From positions 352,001-416,000 of the forward strand of contig CAVVUN010000001.1 of assembly GCA_963751455.1 (NCBI GenBank): a stretch of DNA of 64,000 nucleotides. Reading direction: 5' to 3'. Positions 20,558 through 49,845 of the stretch are shown here, in pieces. The notes beneath the pieces are model-generated. The model did no database searches and was not told where the DNA came from. It saw only the letters and a program-made list of their open reading frames with translations. Both the position numbers and the translations under genes were made by a program. Origin of the DNA: Nitrospirota bacterium (lineage in GTDB: Bacteria; Nitrospirota; UBA9217). Position 1 is the first letter of the stretch, and each line of letters begins with the position of its first letter.

Positions 20558-20628
20558 AGCCTTTTATCCGCAGATTTCGCAGAGAGCACAGACGCCCCTG
20601 ACTCCTGTCTCCTGTCTTCTGTCTCCTG

Positions 20629-21898: not shown

Positions 21899-22088
21899 CC
21901 TGCACCCAGCCTGCACCCAGTGTTTACGAGTGCATATTGCGCGAGTACAGGGTGCGCTTATGAGGTCCTTGATTCCCGTCTCGCGGTACTCAGCGAGATG
22001 GTACGACAATGAGTCTAATTATTAGCAGCACGAGCCTGCGCCCAACGAATTCGAGTGCGTCAGCGCGAGAGTAGGGTGTGCAGTGGCG
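21899..22088 (+). mobile_element. Nested composite of mini-elements: outer A containing A, B and A
   Basis: Outer A starts at 21899, inner A 21910-21954, B about 21965-22018, A 22035-22078. The whole unit interrupts the 7-mer tract AAATCCGAAATCCG|CAATCCGCAATT. Confidence 0.72.
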
Positions 22089-37466: not shown

Positions 37467-38033
37467 TTACGCATCACGAAGTCTGCTCTTTATCGCTTCC
37501 CATATTTCAATCAGGCCCAGGCGCCGCGCCCAATCGGTTATGTAGGCCATATCAATCGCTTCACCGCTGACCTTGAGAATGCCCGTAATATCACGAAGAT
37601 GCTTTTCTGACCCGCCGTCACGGTAATACTCCATTTTCTTGATAATGACGTCCTCCGGAGCCGCAAAATTTGCCTGAAAGGTTTCGGCGGGATTTATTCT
37701 CCTGATACGGCTGAATCGGCTCGCGTCAAATGCTGTGTCGCTGCTGACTATCACGTCTACCTTGAGGCCGGATGCAGGATGAATGATATTGAACTGGCCA
37801 TGAGCTCGTATCGCCTCCCTGATCATGTCACCGTCAATGTAATAGTTATCCGAAGGAAAGGCAGCGAGCAACCCCGGAATGTGCCGTACCCCAAGCACTG
37901 CCACGATATCTACGTCATTCGTAAGCCGGGGTTCGCCGTAAGCCATTGCGGCCACAGAACCCGTAACAAGATAAGGAACAGAAAGCCGTTCGAAGACATC
38001 AACAATCTTGTGCAGAAGCTCAAACGGCTCCAT
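37467..38033 (-). CDS. Nucleotidyltransferase-fold protein, putative toxin
   Basis: TGSVA...YGEPRLTNDVD (GS...RxTxDxD), PEDVIIKK and KHLRDI. Confidence 0.85.
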   Translation of the reverse strand: MEPFELLHKIVDVFERLSVPYLVTGSVAAMAYGEPRLTNDVDIVAVLGVRHIPGLLAAFPSDNYYIDGDMIREAIRAHGQFNIIHPASGLKVDVIVSSDTAFDASRFSRIRRINPAETFQANFAAPEDVIIKKMEYYRDGGSEKHLRDITGILKVSGEAIDMAYITDWARRLGLIEIWEAIKSRLRDA

Positions 38034-38247
38034 GCGACATCCTCCTCGCGACTTCGCCGTAAAGCTGTTCGTCGGACCAAACAGGGTGCTCTCTCCGCAA
38101 ATGCGCGATGAGCATCGTACGTGCCGCGGTCCAAAGGCCAAAGCCTATCGCGATCCGTTCGGCCGGCGTTTTTCGCCGCAGTACAGCCGCCATTGCGTCG
38201 TCAACGATCTCGATTTGTCCTTTATCCAGCCGCAATGTTTTTGACAC
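38020..38247 (-). CDS. Small partner protein, putative antitoxin
   Basis: SD GGAGGAG before GTG 38247; 75 aa with KTPAERIAI...HPVWS..L..EVARR; overlaps the NTase start. Confidence 0.75.
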   Translation of the reverse strand: MSKTLRLDKGQIEIVDDAMAAVLRRKTPAERIAIGFGLWTAARTMLIAHLRREHPVWSDEQLYGEVARRMSHGAV

Positions 38248-38366
38248 GACTCCTCCGCGTCTTTTATGAGTTATCAACAAATCAAGAAATAAGGTTTGAT
38301 CCTGATCCATCAATTACTGGTTAGAATTTTAGCATAGTTTGAAATGAAATACGATGATTTTGAGCA

Positions 38367-38964
38367 AAAGGAATGGGGCTGATCGTCCCCGGCTTTGTTC
38401 CGGACAGCCTCGGGGAAATTTATGAGGCCCCTGATTCCCGCCTGCACCCAGTCGGTTACGAGTGCACTGCGCGAGTGCAGGGTGTCTCGCGATCCATAGC
38501 GAGATGGTACTACAACGAGTCTAAGAATTTCCCCTGATTCCCGTCTGCACCCAGCGTTTATGAGGTCCTTGATTCCCGTCTCGCGCTTCTCAGCGAGATG
38601 GTACTACAATGAGTCTAAGCAGTCGGCACTGCGCGAGTGCAGGGTGTCTCGCGATTCATAGCGAGATGGTACGACAACGAGTCTAAGTATTATGCGACAG
38701 CGGGAATTCAGGGCGGAACTGCGAACTCGCGACAGCGAGGCTCAACCGAGCCACGCGCGAGTGAGCGGATAGATTTTTCATTGTCCACTACTCCTTCTCG
38801 ATAGATTTATCTTTGTCCATCTGCCCCTCGCCCTCCAGGGAGAGGCTGGGGTGAGGGTGGGTCTTCTGAGAAGGATGGGATGAGGATGGGTTCCACCCCG
38901 GCGGAGCCGGGGGAAGCCAAGGCGCGGGATAACGATGGGAATCTGGGCCTGCGGCGCGCTTCTG
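38367..38964 (+). pseudogene. Displaced 3' fragments of the nrfD-like gene, split by repeat elements
   Basis: 38367-38426 matches about 36900-36959 (KGMGLIVPGFVPDSLGEIYE) and 38930-38964 matches 36988-37022 (TMGIWACGALL); the differences I aligned are synonymous. Confidence 0.8.
38427..38713 (+). mobile_element. Nested cluster of mini-elements A and B
   Basis: B contains A (38441-38484). A second B contains A (38544-38646), which itself contains B (about 38565-38618). Confidence 0.78.
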
Positions 38965-40450: not shown

Positions 40451-41374
40451 TCAAGACAATAAAGGGGTGAGATTAAGATGGTAACCGACCAAGCCGCAGC
40501 TGCATGGCGCTGCCCCGGTTTCTACCTCTCCCTGAGGTTCTTTTCGCTCTTTGAATTTATCCACAATCCTTGCTCCACCGCCGTTCGCTGTTCGATAGAT
40601 CACATCCGGTGTGCTGTAGTCCAATGATTGATGTGTTCTTTCCGTGTTGTAGAACATAAAGTATTTCGTCAGCCCCAGTTGCGCTTCAGGTACTGTGGCG
40701 TACCCTTTTAAATATACGTCTTCGTGCTTTACGCTCCGCCATAGCCGTTCCACGAAGATATTGTCCAATGCACGGCCGCGGCCGTCCATGCTGATGTTAA
40801 TGCAGTGCGCCTTGAGCACGCCGGTGAAGGCCTCAGAGGTGAACTGGCAGCCCTGATCGGTGTTGAAGATCTCGGGGATGCCGTATGTCTGTAATGCCTG
40901 TTCTAGGCAGTCCACGCAGAAGCTGCTATCGAGCGTGTTTGATAATCGCCATGCCAGCACTTTGCGTGAGTACCAGTCGATCACGGCCACCAGGTACACA
41001 AATCCCCGCGCCAGGCGGATGTAGGTGATGTCAGTGCTCCATACCTGATTGGGTCGTGTCACCGATACGCCTCTGAGCAGATATGGATAAACCATGTGCT
41101 GCGGGCTGGGGCGGCTGGTGTTCGGTCCCGGTGCCATGCCTGCAAGCCCCAGAATGCCCATTAGCCGCTGTATCCGTTTTCGGTTGACCTGATGCCCTAT
41201 GCCGCACAAGTACACGGTTATTTTGCGGCTGCCGTAGAACGGATGCCGGGTGTATTCGGCGTCGATCTCACTCAGCAGGGTCAATTCCAGCTCGTCCGGG
41301 TCGGTAGTCAGATGCGGCGCATAGAAAGTGGACCGGTTGACACCTGCCAGTTCGCATTGTTTGGTCAGCGCCAA
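40451..41374 (-). CDS. IS3 transposase OrfB (rve integrase core)
   Basis: YGSRKI, NQVWSTDITYI, FNTDQGCQF and DNIFVERLWRSVK. Confidence 0.95.
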   Translation of the reverse strand: MALTKQCELAGVNRSTFYAPHLTTDPDELELTLLSEIDAEYTRHPFYGSRKITVYLCGIGHQVNRKRIQRLMGILGLAGMAPGPNTSRPSPQHMVYPYLLRGVSVTRPNQVWSTDITYIRLARGFVYLVAVIDWYSRKVLAWRLSNTLDSSFCVDCLEQALQTYGIPEIFNTDQGCQFTSEAFTGVLKAHCINISMDGRGRALDNIFVERLWRSVKHEDVYLKGYATVPEAQLGLTKYFMFYNTERTHQSLDYSTPDVIYRTANGGGARIVDKFKERKEPQGEVETGAAPCSCGLVGYHLNLTPLLS

Positions 41375-41409
41375 GGGGTTTTTGGTATCTACCCAGTGCC
41401 GCCGGTCCG

Positions 41410-41703
41410 CTATAGGCTGATCCCGGACTTTTTTTTAAGCCAGTCCAGTTCCATCTTCAGCCGTCCGATCTCGGAGTAGAGCCGCTCCGAACTGGCAGCA
41501 GGATCTACCGGCGCGGGACCGCGCGTAGTGTCAAATATGCCCGCAGCCTGATCTTGCAAAACCTTTTTCCACTGCCCCACTTGCGTTGGATGTACGCCGA
41601 ACGCCTGGGCAATTTCGGTTACTGTCTTGACACCTCGGATCGCCTCAAGCGCGACCTTGGCTTTGAACTGACTGCTGAAATTTTTGCGCTTTTTTTCGCT
41701 CAA
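41410..41703 (-). CDS. IS3 transposase OrfA (HTH)
   Basis: FKAKVALEA...IAQAFGVHPTQVGQWK...LDWLKKKS. Confidence 0.93.
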   Translation of the reverse strand: MSEKKRKNFSSQFKAKVALEAIRGVKTVTEIAQAFGVHPTQVGQWKKVLQDQAAGIFDTTRGPAPVDPAASSERLYSEIGRLKMELDWLKKKSGISL

Positions 41704-41769
41704 AACCTGCTCCTTTTTAACGGCAGGTTACCATCTTAAACTATTGTCCGAAAATTGGGGTCCACTATA

Positions 41770-42042
41770 GTGGCGACGATTGTAATATTGAGCATACCAG
41801 GTTAATTGCTTTCTCATTACATCGGATATTCCCTGCTTTCCACTTTTAAACAGAAGGTGGACATGATTCGTCATGAGCACCCAAGCGTATATCTTCGCAT
41901 TTGCCGCTGTAATGTTCTTTTCTAGTCGGCTCAGAAACAGGGCGCGGTCCTGGTCGTCATCAAATATTGTTGCTTTATTTATCCCACGCAACATGAGGTG
42001 ATGAAGCGCTCCAGGTGCATCAAGTCTCGCTTGCCTTGGCAT
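41770..42042 (-). pseudogene. Y1 HUH tyrosine transposase (IS200-like/RAYT group) truncated by IS3
   Basis: MPRQAR...HHLMLRG...IF...YAWVLMTNHVHLL...YAQYYNRRH; interrupted by the IS3 end before the catalytic Tyr region. Confidence 0.88.
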
Positions 42043-42266: not shown

Positions 42267-42325
42267 GTATAACCAGCGCCTGACGCGCCGTCTTTGGCGC
42301 GTCGCTGTCCAGGCGCTTGTTGGAA
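42267..42325 (-). other. Integron attC site
   Basis: Minus strand TTCCAAC-AAGCGCCTGGAC...GTCAGGCGCTG-GTTATAC: R'' and R' boxes, L boxes with an extrahelical base, central hairpin. Confidence 0.8.
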
Positions 42326-42398
42326 TTTTCATCTGATCGTCATCTTGAGAATCTATTGTCAACACCAAAGATTCGACCCCCAATACGTTCCCAAAAAG

Positions 42399-42529
42399 AT
42401 AATCCCGGGGCTGAGCCATGACCCGTAGGGTCATTGGTCTCGTGCCCGTTGTTCTCCCGGCGGTTCGTGCCGGGAGATGGGCACATGGCTCAGCCCCGGG
42501 ATTCTCGCGGCGCGAAGCGCCGGGAGAAC
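42399..42529. repeat. Structured non-coding repeat, copy 1
   Basis: Long stem CCCGGGGCTGAGCCAT/ATGGCTCAGCCCCGGG with internal hairpins; second copy at 43002-43141. Confidence 0.85.
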
Positions 42530-42584
42530 GCGAAGATGAGCCCTGTTTCGTGGGGGTCGATCTTTTGGTTGGATCATTTCTGTT

Positions 42585-42929
42585 TTATTGAGGTGGAGCT
42601 ATGCGTGATTTTTTTCGTATATCATTCTTGGACTGTGGTGTCTCTTTCTTTTCTATTGGATTCAATTGGTGAGATTGCACCTTATCAGGAGGTACGGCCA
42701 TTGGAGTAGATGGTGTTTTATGAAAAAACTCAGAATACACAAGGGCGAGAGTTAAAATGAGAATGATAGCGGTCATGTATAGCATAAGCTTATCGTTTCT
42801 AATTTGCCTTCTATTAAATTCTGATCGAGCAGCAGTCCTTACATCATTGGGGTATTTGTTAAAATCTGTTGAATTTATGATTTCAATTAACTGATGATCA
42901 TGTTTTTTCGTCCAATTATGATCAGTCAT
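42585..42929 (-). CDS. Hypothetical single-TM protein, cassette-like
   Basis: SD AGGAG before ATG 42929; AT-rich; TM LMLYMTAIILILTLALVY. Confidence 0.65.
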   Translation of the reverse strand: MTDHNWTKKHDHQLIEIINSTDFNKYPNDVRTAARSEFNRRQIRNDKLMLYMTAIILILTLALVYSEFFHKTPSTPMAVPPDKVQSHQLNPIEKKETPQSKNDIRKKSRIAPPQ

Positions 42930-43001
42930 GATGCTGTCTCCTGTGTTTTTTGATGTTGTGGCCAGCTCAGCGGCGAAGACCGACTGGAGCCCGTGGTTGG
43001 A

Positions 43002-43141
43002 ATAATCCCGGGGCTGAGCCATGAATCCGAAGGATCATTGGTCTCGTGCCCCTGGTTTCCCGGCGCGCCTTTAGCTTGCGCCGGGTTAGGGGCACATGGC
43101 TCAGCCCCGGGGATTCTCGCGGCGCGTAGCGCCGGGAGAAC
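43002..43141. repeat. Structured non-coding repeat, copy 2
   Basis: Same architecture as 42399-42529 with compensatory stem changes. Confidence 0.85.
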
Positions 43142-43191
43142 ACGCGGGTAACTCGCCGCAAGGCGAGTCGATGTTGACGCGCTAGTTATGC
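43135..43191 (-). other. Integron attC site downstream of the HNH gene
   Basis: Minus strand GCATAAC-TAGCGCGTCAAC...ACTCGCC-TTGC-GGCGAGT-TACCCGCGT-GTT. Confidence 0.7.
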
Positions 43192-43210: not shown

Positions 43211-44209
43211 TTAGATAATAATTCTCTTGCTTACTGACATGAGCTTACTAACTTGTTTTGTTTCAATATCAAAATGATGGCCTGATTTGAGAGGTATCCA
43301 AATGCCGCTAAAATTATCGCAAAGAGTCACGCCATAAGTATAAGTGTTAAATAAACTAACTTTACTAAAAAGTTTGCTGTGATTCCATTCGACGGTGATC
43401 AGATGTCCGTTAGTTGTTTTAATTTTCATCGTTTGGTCATAATAGAGTATGGGAGACTGGTTCACATTTAAATATCGGCGGCAATCACCTTGGTCATATC
43501 TAATAAATCGTCGTATTTCGTGGAAGTTTTCAGAGAACATGAAATGTTTTCCAGCAACATAGGCGAGATAATTGAAGGCGATTTTGCAGAAGCCTCTCAT
43601 TATCACGCGATCAATCGTTACTTCCATTTCTATAGGTATTCTCCCGTCTGGTAGTTGCTTCTTTTCTAAGTAATCCTTGTCAGCGATTTCGATGCCTTTT
43701 CCTCGAAGCAATGATATTAATTCATCTATTTCTCGACCTTCTTCCGCGACAAGCCAAATCGTGGTTCCTTTCTTTAGATAGCCCCGTTCGATAAGCTCTT
43801 CCTTTGAGGGAATATTATCAGGAGTAAAATAATGATACTCGTCTTCATTGGCATTATAGAATCCCACTTGAACGGATTTCTCTACCCCTAACTCATTAAC
43901 TCCACAAGGTCGTTCTTCTACAACGAGCCCCTTCCAGTCACCCTCTTTTATTTTACTTTTTACTCTTCTTCGCCTAGCAAGCGGAGCTTTGGGCTTTAAA
44001 CCGTGTCTTAATCGTTCGACACCCTCAAATGAATCTCGTCCCAAAAACAACTCTATTTTGTCACCGAAATATTGATTGCAATCATCACAAATGGTCTCAT
44101 ATAGGAGAAGATTATCTGGGGAGAACAGTCCGAAAGACTGCGGAATCACATGTTCTCTTTTTTGAAAATCAGATTTCTTCTTGTCCTCTAAACAATATAT
44201 GCATCGCAT
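43211..44209 (-). CDS. HNH endonuclease (HNH_5-like N-terminus), gene cassette
   Basis: CIYC...REHVIPQSFG...ICDDCNQYFG and KIAFNYL; AT-rich; bounded by attC sites. Confidence 0.88.
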   Translation of the reverse strand: MRCIYCLEDKKKSDFQKREHVIPQSFGLFSPDNLLLYETICDDCNQYFGDKIELFLGRDSFEGVERLRHGLKPKAPLARRRRVKSKIKEGDWKGLVVEERPCGVNELGVEKSVQVGFYNANEDEYHYFTPDNIPSKEELIERGYLKKGTTIWLVAEEGREIDELISLLRGKGIEIADKDYLEKKQLPDGRIPIEMEVTIDRVIMRGFCKIAFNYLAYVAGKHFMFSENFHEIRRFIRYDQGDCRRYLNVNQSPILYYDQTMKIKTTNGHLITVEWNHSKLFSKVSLFNTYTYGVTLCDNFSGIWIPLKSGHHFDIETKQVSKLMSVSKRIII

Positions 44210-46245: not shown

Positions 46246-46665
46246 CTACGGAGAACCGGACCACGGATTAATGACCTCAAGACCAGGGTAATCGAAATCC
46301 TTGACGTTATGCGTCACGAGCCGCAAGTCGTGATGCAGCGCGGTAGCCGCAAGAAGGCTGTCTATTGTGGGAACCGATCTTCGAACTTCCGCCAGCAGAC
46401 GCCCCCAACGGTCGGCGACCGCAAGGTCGACCGGGAGGACCCGTTCCTCAAACCATCCCGGAAGTTCGTGATCAAACCAGATTCGCAGCTTTTCACGACG
46501 TTTCTTGTCCGTCAACGCCTCGATGCCTTTGCTTATCTCTCCCAGCGTGAGCACGCTGATAAAGAGCGCTTCACCCGGGACCTGGTCGAGCCATGCTATC
46601 ACCGCCTTGTCCGGGTTGCGCCTGACAGCCTCCGACACAACGTTCGTATCCAGCAGAAAGCTCAT
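46246..46665 (-). CDS. vapC: VapC (PIN-domain) toxin
   Basis: FLLDTNVVSE, SVLTLGEI, DSLLAATA and LVTHNVKDF. Confidence 0.95.
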   Translation of the reverse strand: MSFLLDTNVVSEAVRRNPDKAVIAWLDQVPGEALFISVLTLGEISKGIEALTDKKRREKLRIWFDHELPGWFEERVLPVDLAVADRWGRLLAEVRRSVPTIDSLLAATALHHDLRLVTHNVKDFDYPGLEVINPWSGSP

Positions 46666-46913
46666 GCGACATCCGCCTCCCGCGTGAGCGTTTGTTGACG
46701 TTCGATATCAAGCTCCACACCGTAAAGCGGCGAGCGTCGCATGAATTTCAGAAAGCTCTCCGGCGGATGCTTGAGACGTTCATACTCCTTGCTCGAAATG
46801 ACAACGGCACTCGGTTCCCCGTGAACAGTGATCATCTGCGGACCGTCCTTCACGGCCTTCTTGATAACCTCGCTCAGGCGGGCCTTTGCTTCCTGCAGCT
46901 GCCAACTGGTCAT
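46662..46913 (-). CDS. Phd/YefM-family antitoxin
   Basis: WQLQEAKARLSEVI...GPQMITVHG..AVV; ATGA overlap with vapC; upstream TTGACA-17-TATTAT and SD AGGAGG. Confidence 0.94.
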   Translation of the reverse strand: MTSWQLQEAKARLSEVIKKAVKDGPQMITVHGEPSAVVISSKEYERLKHPPESFLKFMRRSPLYGVELDIERQQTLTREADVA

Positions 46914-47110
46914 ATACGCCTCCTATTTTGGTCAGTCTAGTCAGACTCAATAATAGCACCGGGATTGAGAATTGTCAAGACCGCGGATGCCGGGTATGGA
47001 GAACGGAATTACAAGAGATAGGGTCAAGGGTCAAGCAGGCAATCAGCAGGAACCGGTTTGTATCGCGAACATGAAATAGTAAGATCAACCACGGATTGAT
47101 AATGTCAAAA

Positions 47111-47447
47111 TCATAGTCCGTTCAGAAATTGCGTCACAACCAGCAGGACGGTGAGCGCGATGAGAATGTAGACCGTGGTCCAGGTGATGATGTTCATCCG
47201 TCTGGAGTTGACGTTCTCTCCCATGATCGATTTGTCGTTCACAAGCTTGAGCATGATGATCAGCACGACCGGCAGGAGTATCCCGTTAATGGTCTGGGAC
47301 ACGAACATGATCTTGATGAGCGGCGCTCCGGGCAGAAGGATCGCTCCGGCGCCGATCACGATAAATGCCGTATAAAAAACCGAGAAACTGGGGCGCTTCC
47401 TTGAAACTCTTGCTGACCCCGGATTCCCAGCCGAAGGCCTCTGACAG
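47111..47447 (-). pseudogene. Displaced 3' fragment of the Nramp gene
   Basis: Near-identical to 48589-48924, with mostly third-position differences and one extra A at about 47374-47379. Confidence 0.9.
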
Positions 47448-47688
47448 TAATATCGTACTGATCTGGCTTGATCTGAAAAACAACAGCAAATGGGAATGTC
47501 ATCGTAAGACAGCGGCGAACGCCATCTTCGATTTCAGGGTATAGGAGAGGATTGATTTGGATTCTGTTGAGGGCGTCTTGAACTAACGTAAGAAAGCGCT
47601 TCCCGAGGTCCTTCTGCTGGCTCTCGTAAAACTTGGCCGCAGAAATCATCTCGGCCTCGGCTTCAGGATGGAAGCGAACGGGTTTCAT
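47448..47688 (-). CDS. RelE/ParE-family toxin, C-terminus fused to or truncated by the Nramp fragment
   Basis: MKPVRFHPEAEAEMISAAKFYE...LGKRF...NP..YP...RRC...FPFAVVF; the usual C-terminal A..H..R.P motif is absent. Confidence 0.8.
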
Positions 47689-47915
47689 CCGAGGGCTGCA
47701 AAGCCTCTGGCAAATACATCCGCGGCCTCACGCAACTCTACTGATCCTTCATCTATCTCGCGACAGCGCTTGCGTATTTCGTCTCGCCATGCAGACGACA
47801 AAGTAAATTCATGTTCGGAATCGAGGCTTTCGATAAGTTTTTCCGCTACGAAAGCACGCGCTTGCGGGGAAAGAGAAAGAACTTCCGCTATGATTTCATC
47901 AATCGTTGTTTTCAT
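47685..47915 (-). CDS. Addiction-module antitoxin component
   Basis: LSLSPQARAFVAEKLIESLD...AWRDEIRKR; overlaps the toxin start; leaderless promoter TTGACC-17-TATAAT (47950-47922). Confidence 0.88.
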   Translation of the reverse strand: MKTTIDEIIAEVLSLSPQARAFVAEKLIESLDSEHEFTLSSAWRDEIRKRCREIDEGSVELREAADVFARGFAALG

Positions 47916-48500: not shown

Positions 48501-48588
48501 GATTTTACCCTCCTCAAGTCGACACGACCTTACCGGGTTAGACTAAGACAACAACCAGAAAGTTCGGTTTTACACGGCCACAGACAGA

Positions 48589-49845
48589 TCATAGTCCGTC
48601 CAGAAAGTTCGTCACAACCAGCAGGACGGTGAGCGCGATAAGAATGTAGACCGTGGTCCAGGTGATGATGTTCATCCGTCTGGAGTTGACGTACTCTCCC
48701 ATGATGGATTTGTCGTTCACGAGCTTGAGCATGATGATCAGCACGATCGGCAGGAGTATCCCGTTAATGGTCTGGGACACGAACATGATCTTGATGAGCG
48801 GCGCTCCGGGCAGAAGGATCGCTCCGGCGCCGATCACGATAAATGCCGTATAAAAGCCGAGAAACTGGGGCGCTTCCTTGAAACTCTTGCTGATCCCCGA
48901 CTCCCATCCGAAAGCCTCTGATAGCCCGTACGCAGTTGCCAAAGGCAGCACGAACGCGGCCAGAACCGAGGCGTTCAGGAGGCCGAGAGCGAACAGGTGC
49001 GAAGCAAAATCGCCGGCCAACGGTTCAAGCGCCCGGGCAGCGTCCTCGGCCGAGTTAACGATGACTCCGGCAGGATGAAGTATGGTCCCAGTCGCAAGAA
49101 TGATGAAAAAAGCGATGAACACGGTCATGAACGACCCGGCATACACGTCGAACCTTGCAAAACCGTATTCCTCTATGCGAACGCCCTTGTCCACGACGGC
49201 GGACTGAAGATAAAACTGCATATAGGGCGTAATCGTGGTCCCGACCATGGTGATAAAGAGCAATATATAGTCCTTGTCCATTCTGATACTCGGCACCGCG
49301 ATCTGCTTGGCGACTTCTGACCAAGCCGGCTTGGCCATGAACCCGGAAACCACGTACGTAAGGTAAATCAGGCTGATTCCGATGAGAAATCGTTCTACCT
49401 GCTTGAAGTTACCCTTCACGACAACAAACCAGACGATAAAGGCGGAGGCCGGAACGGAAAGGTATTTGCTCACATGGAAGAGTTCCATGCTTGCGGCAAT
49501 CCCTGCGAATTCGGCTATGGTTACGGTGAGATTGGCGAATATGAAAAGAGCCATTACGGCAAGCGTAACTTTGACGCCGAATTGTTCGCGTACGAGGTCG
49601 CCGAACCCCTTCCCTGTCACGACGCCCATCCTGGATGACATCTCCTGAACAACTGCAAGAGCAACCGTAATAAGTACGAGCGCCCACAGGAGTCCGTACC
49701 CTTCACGGGCCCCGACAATCGAATACGTTGCTATGCCGCCGGCGTCATTTCCCGCGTTCCCGGCAATGAAACCCGGCCCGATTATGCCGAATAGCACAAT
49801 GATTCCGGGAAACTTCATATTTTTGATTCTCTCGAGCAGTTTCAC
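48589..49845 (-). CDS. Nramp-family divalent metal transporter (NRMT-like, probably Mg2+)
   Basis: GPGFI..NAGNDAGGIATY, QEMSSRMGVVTGKG and GTTITPYM; about 11 TM; SD GAGG before GTG 49845. Confidence 0.92.
   Translation of the reverse strand: MKLLERIKNMKFPGIIVLFGIIGPGFIAGNAGNDAGGIATYSIVGAREGYGLLWALVLITVALAVVQEMSSRMGVVTGKGFGDLVREQFGVKVTLAVMALFIFANLTVTIAEFAGIAASMELFHVSKYLSVPASAFIVWFVVVKGNFKQVERFLIGISLIYLTYVVSGFMAKPAWSEVAKQIAVPSIRMDKDYILLFITMVGTTITPYMQFYLQSAVVDKGVRIEEYGFARFDVYAGSFMTVFIAFFIILATGTILHPAGVIVNSAEDAARALEPLAGDFASHLFALGLLNASVLAAFVLPLATAYGLSEAFGWESGISKSFKEAPQFLGFYTAFIVIGAGAILLPGAPLIKIMFVSQTINGILLPIVLIIMLKLVNDKSIMGEYVNSRRMNIITWTTVYILIALTVLLVVTNFLDGL

Follow-up and report, generated by a model that had tools for sequence, protein, structure and literature searches.

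The window, our term for the whole 64,000-nt stretch analysed here, carries on its minus strand an array of genes and attC sites among which stand two copies of a short structured unit. Read 5′ to 3′, the array begins with a 356-aa gene, an attC and an HNH_5 gene whose cassette (43211–44209) ends in a second attC (43135–43191); the crossover G of this site, at 43141, immediately precedes copy 2 (43006–43140). Copy 2 is followed directly by an attC-like site without the GTT of R′ (42952–43002) and then by a 121-aa gene, the cassette of which ends in an attC (42523–42574) with its crossover G at 42529, next to copy 1 (42403–42528). Beyond copy 1 lie 75 nt of ORF-less DNA (window 42326–42402), a complete attC that ends this stretch (42267–42325) and a Y1 (PF01797) gene (41728–42042) that is truncated after about residue 92 by an IS3 element (40451–41770). 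The original prediction had placed an attC-like site after each copy: the site at 42325 has all its parts, with those 75 nt between it and copy 1, and the site at 43002 retains R″ and the L boxes without the GTT of R′. The incomplete site leads into a gene leader, and its homologue in a relative (L211, G022:C82:404-467) is also without R′; in G033 (L200), the cassettes that come after units are smaller still and consist of an attC only. Around the array we observed three toxin–antitoxin-type pairs (37467–38313, 46246–46913 and 47356–47915) and a partial duplication of the end of a transporter gene (47110–47447 and 48588–48924), and the window also contains REP-like dispersed repeat families (D2, D4, D5 and D9; at 20628, 21916–22079, 28607, 31391 and 38440–38700).

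Both copies contain the parts first described for them, namely a 16-bp closing stem, a TGGTCTC linker, a GTGCCC/GGGCAC arm and a terminal hairpin with a GAA or GTA loop. As had been proposed for copy 2, its start coincides with the R′ crossover of the attC upstream, and the same holds for copy 1. The earlier lengths of 131 and 140 bp need correction: from crossover to crossover, the copies measure 126 nt and 135 nt, each starting with the TT of the upstream G|TT and ending at an A|TT. A feature missed at first, present in both copies, is an attC inside the unit itself. In copy 1, hairpin A (42502–42528), which has a C-GAA-G loop on the bottom strand and a 5′ arm that is also complementary to the bases preceding the embedded R″, is followed by segment B (42485–42501), an inverted copy of the right arm of the embedded attC (L′, spacer and crossover base) that forms the closing stem, and by segments C and D (42458–42484), an inverted copy of the left arm plus an inner hairpin. 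The embedded attC (42397–42457) then comprises R″ (42457–42451), a spacer, L″ (42445–42439, carrying an extrahelical C and then an A), L′ (42415–42410) and R′ with its A|TT at 42403. Copy 2 has the same plan, with hairpin A at 43114–43140 (GTA loop on the bottom strand), the putative masking arms and inner hairpin of segments B, C and D at 43062–43113, and the embedded attC at 43000–43061 (R″ 43061–43055, L″ 43049–43043, L′ 43018–43013, R′ A|TT 43006). Folding z-scores ranged from −8.1 to −11.9 for both copies on both strands with DNA and RNA parameters (200 dinucleotide shuffles), and 0/200 shuffles were as stable as the window copies in any of these comparisons.

This anatomy recurs in 52 distinct full-length homologues, which remained from 60 parsed rows after removal of 3 that were misparsed or internally deleted and 5 identical duplicates. 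On the top strand, the unit consists of hairpin A, segment B, segment C and a hairpin D that ends in R″, followed by the rest of a canonical attC, which makes up the 3′ half of the unit (R″, a 5-nt spacer, L″ with extrahelical bases, L′ and R′). Segment B is an inverted copy of L′, the spacer and the crossover base, and segment C of the left arm, both without the bulged bases; the inverted half of the unit always lacks the terminal loop as well as the extrahelical bases. The determinants of the embedded site are well kept: R″ carries AAC in 46/52 homologues (and ATC in three divergent members, which begin with AT accordingly), the 5-nt spacer is found in 51/52, six of six L-box pairs form in 24, five in 23 and four in 5, an extrahelical C or G is present in 46/52, and an A follows L″ in all 52. 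A departure from the usual site is a right-hand spacer of 7–8 nt in 3/52. The cassette start is complementary to the unit's own R″ (89% of cells paired). The crossover base is A in 42/52 and G in 10/52, A forming a G·T pair with R″ on the bottom strand; it follows segment B rather than R″, being complementary to the first B base in 52/52 homologues and in 82 of 91 cores recovered by architecture alone. In 41/52, the bottom strand of hairpin A closes with a C-GAA-G loop; the loops of hairpin D are rich in A when read on the top strand, which would fit D being hairpin A in inverted orientation. Short forms without B, C and D, consisting of a hairpin and an attC, also exist (L097, L011, L053 and L067). 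Larger, divergent structured cassettes with a similar hairpin-plus-anti-arm design were seen at L265 (G340:C11), L208 and L209.

The surroundings of the units place them at cassette borders. Among 95 testable upstream contexts, 58 contained an attC by a strict test (shuffled control, 52/1,900 or 2.7%), 11 an attI-like motif and 26 were unclassified, several of which look attC- or attI-like by eye; the attI-like calls are mostly by motif only, tblastn and Pfam placing IntI upstream of few such sites in the short loci. The bases 3′ of the unit resemble cassette starts (purine in 52/56 and 42/56), and in the source genome the same cassette start occurs once after a unit and twice after a plain attC. 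At the 17 TT-bearing sites of one attI-type motif, a complete unit comes next in 3, remnants or a divergent relative in 3 and gene cassettes in 11; unit and gene cassettes join the motif at exactly the same base, and one of these sites lies beside a full IntI. A second attI-type motif is followed by a unit at 1/7 sites. Units and gene cassettes thus interchange at attC- and attI-type borders, and the unit behaves as a cassette. Movement independent of neighbours is indicated by seven cores with 2–5 different downstream flanks each. We therefore consider it very likely that the unit is an integron cassette. Among the relatives examined, no exact counterpart site without the unit was found for either window copy; sites of the same attC type are followed there by a gene in one case and by unit-like elements in two, and lack GTT in one. 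Units do not accompany every cassette but are interspersed among them, and enrichment at the first position was not seen in G274 (3/10 TT-bearing attI-type sites). A few units occupy secondary sites, as at an A|TA inside an integrase-like gene (L074 and L124). Separately, we noted group II introns in the attC upstream of one unit (L029, G000:C1:23841) and inside hairpin A of another (L238, G274:C83:1386), and we observed that G274, G340, G087 and relatives contain many attI-type motifs per genome, with promoter-like DNA upstream and mostly no intI in view.

The source genome contains 14 loci, about ten of them complete, and its complete integron carries two divergent units in tandem (G000:C1:550370-550113; L142 and L204) near an IntI gene (C1:554176-555288). 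A covariance model built from the 52 distinct full-length copies matched 26/151 genomes of the phylum (17/27 in the family) and 11/151 genomes from the phylum to which a Desulfuromonadales record belongs. Exact-pattern searches added Ignavibacteriales and Desulfonema records, one phage record and 60 metagenome loci, about a quarter of which are chance matches in coding DNA or without a unit. The family therefore spans Nitrospirota, Desulfobacterota-type and Ignavibacteriales records, plus one phage. Across 278 loci, a detector based on architecture alone recovered 91 distinct cores, with none recovered from shuffles, and distant members have a common layout and little sequence in common. Copy numbers reach 21 in G274; G087 has six near-identical copies and one partial copy, and G163 has four equal-scoring copies, of which the two that were read are identical. 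IntI was found in the source genome and in 4/5 multi-copy genomes, with no IntI match in G087 (seven copies; assembly 83% complete). No unit was found in 72,556 plasmids or in GenBank phages, and an exact long pattern gave 0 matches in viral contigs. The phage record (G091, 83 kb; L040 and L205) carries three divergent units, two of which follow a different structured repeat of about 130 nt that has no Rfam match.

Copy 1 has a Y1 gene 360 bp away, genes of the RAYT type abound in these arrays, and hairpins with GNA triloops suit HUH enzymes. These points suggested a REP/REPIN- or IS200-end-like element, targeted to attC and mobilized by the neighbouring Y1, as the original prediction had offered as one possibility. 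The wider comparison makes this barely credible. The window gene is a truncated bystander, and an intact homologue that is 91% identical (G000:C9:160374) has no unit within 100 kb. In the source genome, Y1 genes occur within 2.5 kb of 2/14 units, compared with 8/47 plain attC sites and 2.7% of random positions, and a Y1 is nearby in 5/95 homologue rows, which have short flanks; RAYT-type Y1 genes are thus common in arrays and enriched near attC, yet not tied to the unit. A GTAG tag at the unit ends was found in 0/52 homologues and a target duplication in 1/52, and terminal inverted repeats are absent (the first and last 10 nt match at no more than four positions in 51/52), so that the unit resembles neither REP/BIME elements nor IS ends; its borders obey the crossover rules of IntI.

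The unit can adopt two mutually exclusive folds, and the alignment of the 52 homologues bears the mark of both. In the masked fold, a three-way junction that corresponds to the structure first described, 89% of cells are paired and 239 are double-change cells, compared with 62 in shuffles (0/500); in the attC fold, where R″ pairs with the cassette start as it would in a circle, 88.5% are paired and 80 are double-change cells, compared with 19.4 (0/500), these counts being of sequences rather than of events. Both folds exceed all slid controls as well as the 500 shuffles. A caveat is that inverted repeats can be homogenized by template switching without selection. The mismatches of the attC fold are G·T on the bottom strand in 41 cases and on the top strand in 3 (48 and 2 in 90 cores), a bias reported to be general for attC sites (PMC5027507), whereas wobbles in the masked fold favour neither strand. 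The embedded attC fold thus prefers the bottom strand of DNA. The isolated attC had no stability advantage there, being more stable on the bottom strand in only 20/52 homologues. Within the linker, the bases that the junction leaves unpaired show covariation with L′ (GAG/CTC 40, AAG/CTT 19, AAC/GTT 4), and the outer stem, the B/G helix, is 95% paired with no conserved bulge.

These strand preferences also bear on a role in RNA, in which the transcribed top strand would block or insulate expression of the downstream cassette, or act as a small RNA. The predicted RNA fold is stable (about −91 kcal/mol), most units have a gene immediately 3′ of them, attC hairpins are reported to affect downstream translation and some gene-less cassettes to be regulatory (PMC8876359), and promoter cassettes of Vibrio offer a precedent (10.1101/2023.11.21.568050). 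We nevertheless find such a function highly unlikely. The C-GAA-G loop of hairpin A is on the bottom strand in 41/52 homologues, the wobbles of the masked fold favour neither strand, the conserved unpaired bases are attC determinants and the downstream genes are unrelated. Neither copy contains a promoter- or terminator-like site, including sigma70-like ones, and searches of Rfam 15 returned no family for the unit: the best score in the window region was 21.7 bits against a threshold of 90, and the 14 loci of the source genome gave only a tRNA. Of the original proposal that the unit is an ORF-less cassette encoding a structured RNA or single-stranded DNA, the cassette and the single-stranded DNA are supported by the crossover borders, the unit's own attC, the GNA loops on the bottom strand and the wobble bias; an RNA product found no positive sign in the sequence.

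With DNA parameters, the three-way junction is favoured over the attC in 50/52 homologues, by a median of about 10 kcal/mol, leaving 2/52 predicted to be unmasked. We computed the recombinogenic fraction with an equilibrium model after Loot et al. (PMC5371416). The predicted value falls from 4.7e-3 for the isolated site to 1.6e-11 in the whole unit, with 51/52 units below 1e-5, and is 1.3e-2 for 37 plain attC sites of the source genome; in the circle it is 3.6e-12, and in a modelled short form 0.2. The effect is predicted to reach the neighbouring junction as well: hairpin A competes for the AA of R′ of the upstream attC and lowers its R-box pairing in 27/32 cases (median 0.05 versus 0.42). 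When the bottom strand is exposed 5′ first, the attC is predicted to remain unmasked for a median of 38 further bases. These folding predictions suggest, with moderate confidence, a self-masking role. We propose that the unit is a gene-less integron cassette whose inverted attC arms would mask its own attC, and that it is probably a self-locking passenger moved by IntI.

A different assignment of the recombination site starts from the same junction. The outer closing stem could itself be the site, an attC of unusual build that lacks extrahelical bases and has the junction as its large terminal structure, the inner attC being a relic or a second site. The predominant crossover base A, which follows B, fits the outer stem better and is a point against the inner attC, as is the complementarity to the first B base noted above (52/52 and 82/91); the outer-stem fold dominates in 50/52, and some attC sites are reported to be active on both strands after deletion of the extrahelical bases alone (PMC5027507). 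However, extrahelical bases are missing from the outer stem and its spacer is paired throughout, a combination that in the VCR lowered recombination 8.5e4-fold (PMC2727003). A mismatch between partners at the first base cost 1e3–1e4-fold in the fully paired mutant sites of PMC2811028, among which the G·T wobble does not figure, and 37/47 A-type units are preceded by G, which would be non-permissive for a fully paired site; the inner site therefore fits better than the outer stem. The covariation of the unpaired linker bases with L′ and the presence of short forms without B at cassette positions also count against the outer stem, and we regard it as unlikely to be the recombination site.

Returning to the self-masking passenger, a predicted fraction of 1e-11 would at equilibrium forbid mobility, yet copies multiply; the two are hard to reconcile unless kinetics, supercoiling or IntI binding come into play. 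Recombination of the inner attC by IntI, on the bottom strand, may be confined to a brief period, which could arise when that strand is exposed 5′ first and the attC folds before the masking arms emerge about 38 nt later, or when the attC fold is trapped by IntI or supercoiling. Excision would then be rare yet non-zero, and copy-and-paste reintegration, which is common (PMC8024014), would accumulate copies. Sites with a low pfold are reported to excise rarely (PMC5371416), and the masked fold is likely to reduce both the loss of the unit and the excision of flanking cassettes, which would favour persistence and hitchhiking.

The geometry of the long form is exactly that of a short form inserted in inverted orientation at the R″ of another copy and then trimmed. 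We suggest that the unit arose in this way, when a short form (hairpin A and attC) entered the R″ of another copy, conceivably by recombination of a top strand with a bottom strand and subsequent loss of the duplicated terminal loop; recombination of the top strand is reported to lead to inversion (PMC5027507). Because some short forms clearly derive from long ones by deletion, the order from short to long is unproven. The same geometry, a minimal cassette dimerized in inverted orientation, could also be a neutral by-product, with self-complementarity kept by template switching or gene conversion, copies spread by drift and copy-and-paste, and masking unselected. Chimeric copies in G274 point to conversion-like events. 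So does the crossover base of the upstream attC, which is A in 10/58 sites before units (for example, G000:C12:98975) and in one plain attC of the source genome; either conversion by hairpin A or a target preference could place A there. Yet collapsed and truncated copies are common, marking the palindrome as unstable, and the intact layout is nevertheless kept across wholly different sequences in several phyla, with the terminal loop and extrahelical bases always missing from the inverted copy. A purely neutral origin and maintenance therefore appears distinctly unlikely.

A stronger version of the self-masking reading is possible, although we hold it to be doubtful. The unit might be a selfish, MITE-like integron parasite with a conformational switch in DNA, recombinogenic only if the bottom strand is exposed 5′ first, that upon insertion locks itself together with the junctions on either side; it would have arisen by wrong-strand recombination by IntI, would represent the first 'anti-attC' from nature, would regulate the turnover of cassettes and would account for roughly a fifth of the cassette junctions in some genomes. 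Integron cassettes are generally held to persist through their cargo, and the activity of an attC to be set by the fold of the site itself. A cargo-free family with 14–21 copies per genome, a distribution across phyla and an anti-attC of its own would imply either true selfish passengers of integrons or arrays frozen junction by junction. The unit bears on three open points, namely the kinetics of attC folding in single-stranded DNA at the fork, the tolerance of G·T at the crossover base and the birth of cassettes by top-strand recombination, and tools that take GTT for granted when detecting attC would overlook or miscount it. Units also follow aadA-type attC sites of environmental cassettes (L109 and L235, the latter at G274:C44:64143), the gene upstream of L109 having no plasmid match, and they are absent from the plasmids searched.

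We found no description of the unit, or of any cassette with a built-in anti-attC, in the openly accessible literature searched; the unit is a real, widespread and apparently undescribed variant of the gene-less integron cassette. With the attC sites aadA7 and VCR (PMC2727003, PMC5027507 and PMC5371416), it shares the R″/L″/L′/R′ layout, 5-nt spacer, extrahelical bases, G·T bias on the bottom strand, GNA-type loops and G|TT-type crossover, whereas it differs in having its arms repeated in inverted orientation beyond the site and in the mostly A|TT form of R′. In VCRs, a low pfold is due to a long terminal structure within the site itself (PMC5371416); in the unit, it is predicted to result from a dedicated anti-site. 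ORF-less cassettes of Treponema, Xanthomonas and Vibrio resemble it in cassette position, 3′ attC and lack of an ORF, but those described carry promoters or small RNAs and span hundreds of bases, with Vibrio size controls of 450–650 bp (PMC8876359; 10.1101/2023.11.21.568050), whereas the unit is 118–136 nt long, 66% GC, fully structured, free of promoter-like sites and present in near-identical multiple copies.

The unit also resembles elements that hitch onto other machinery. Like the MITEs and CALINs described as hitchers (PMC11389934), it is non-autonomous, short, non-coding, multi-copy and dependent on an enzyme supplied in trans, but it uses the integron crossover and has neither terminal inverted repeats nor a target duplication, and is thus MITE-like in its working without being a MITE. 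REP and REPIN elements with their RAYT (TnpA-REP) are likewise GC-rich palindromes, with a Y1 nearby in the window, whereas the unit lacks the tetranucleotide tag and the Y1 association and is confined to cassette borders. Group II introns at attC sites are also attC passengers, two of them beside or inside units, but the unit has no reverse transcriptase or domain V, is 126–135 nt in the window, keeps cassette orientation and is inserted at R′, leaving the site unsplit. The DUF1874 motif (Weinberg 2017, PMC5737381) is, in the main text of that paper, likewise a multi-stem structure repeated between genes and proposed as a possible attC beyond a hairpin; the unit differs from what is described there in having no Rfam match, in following an ordinary attC rather than replacing it and in being found beside IntI.
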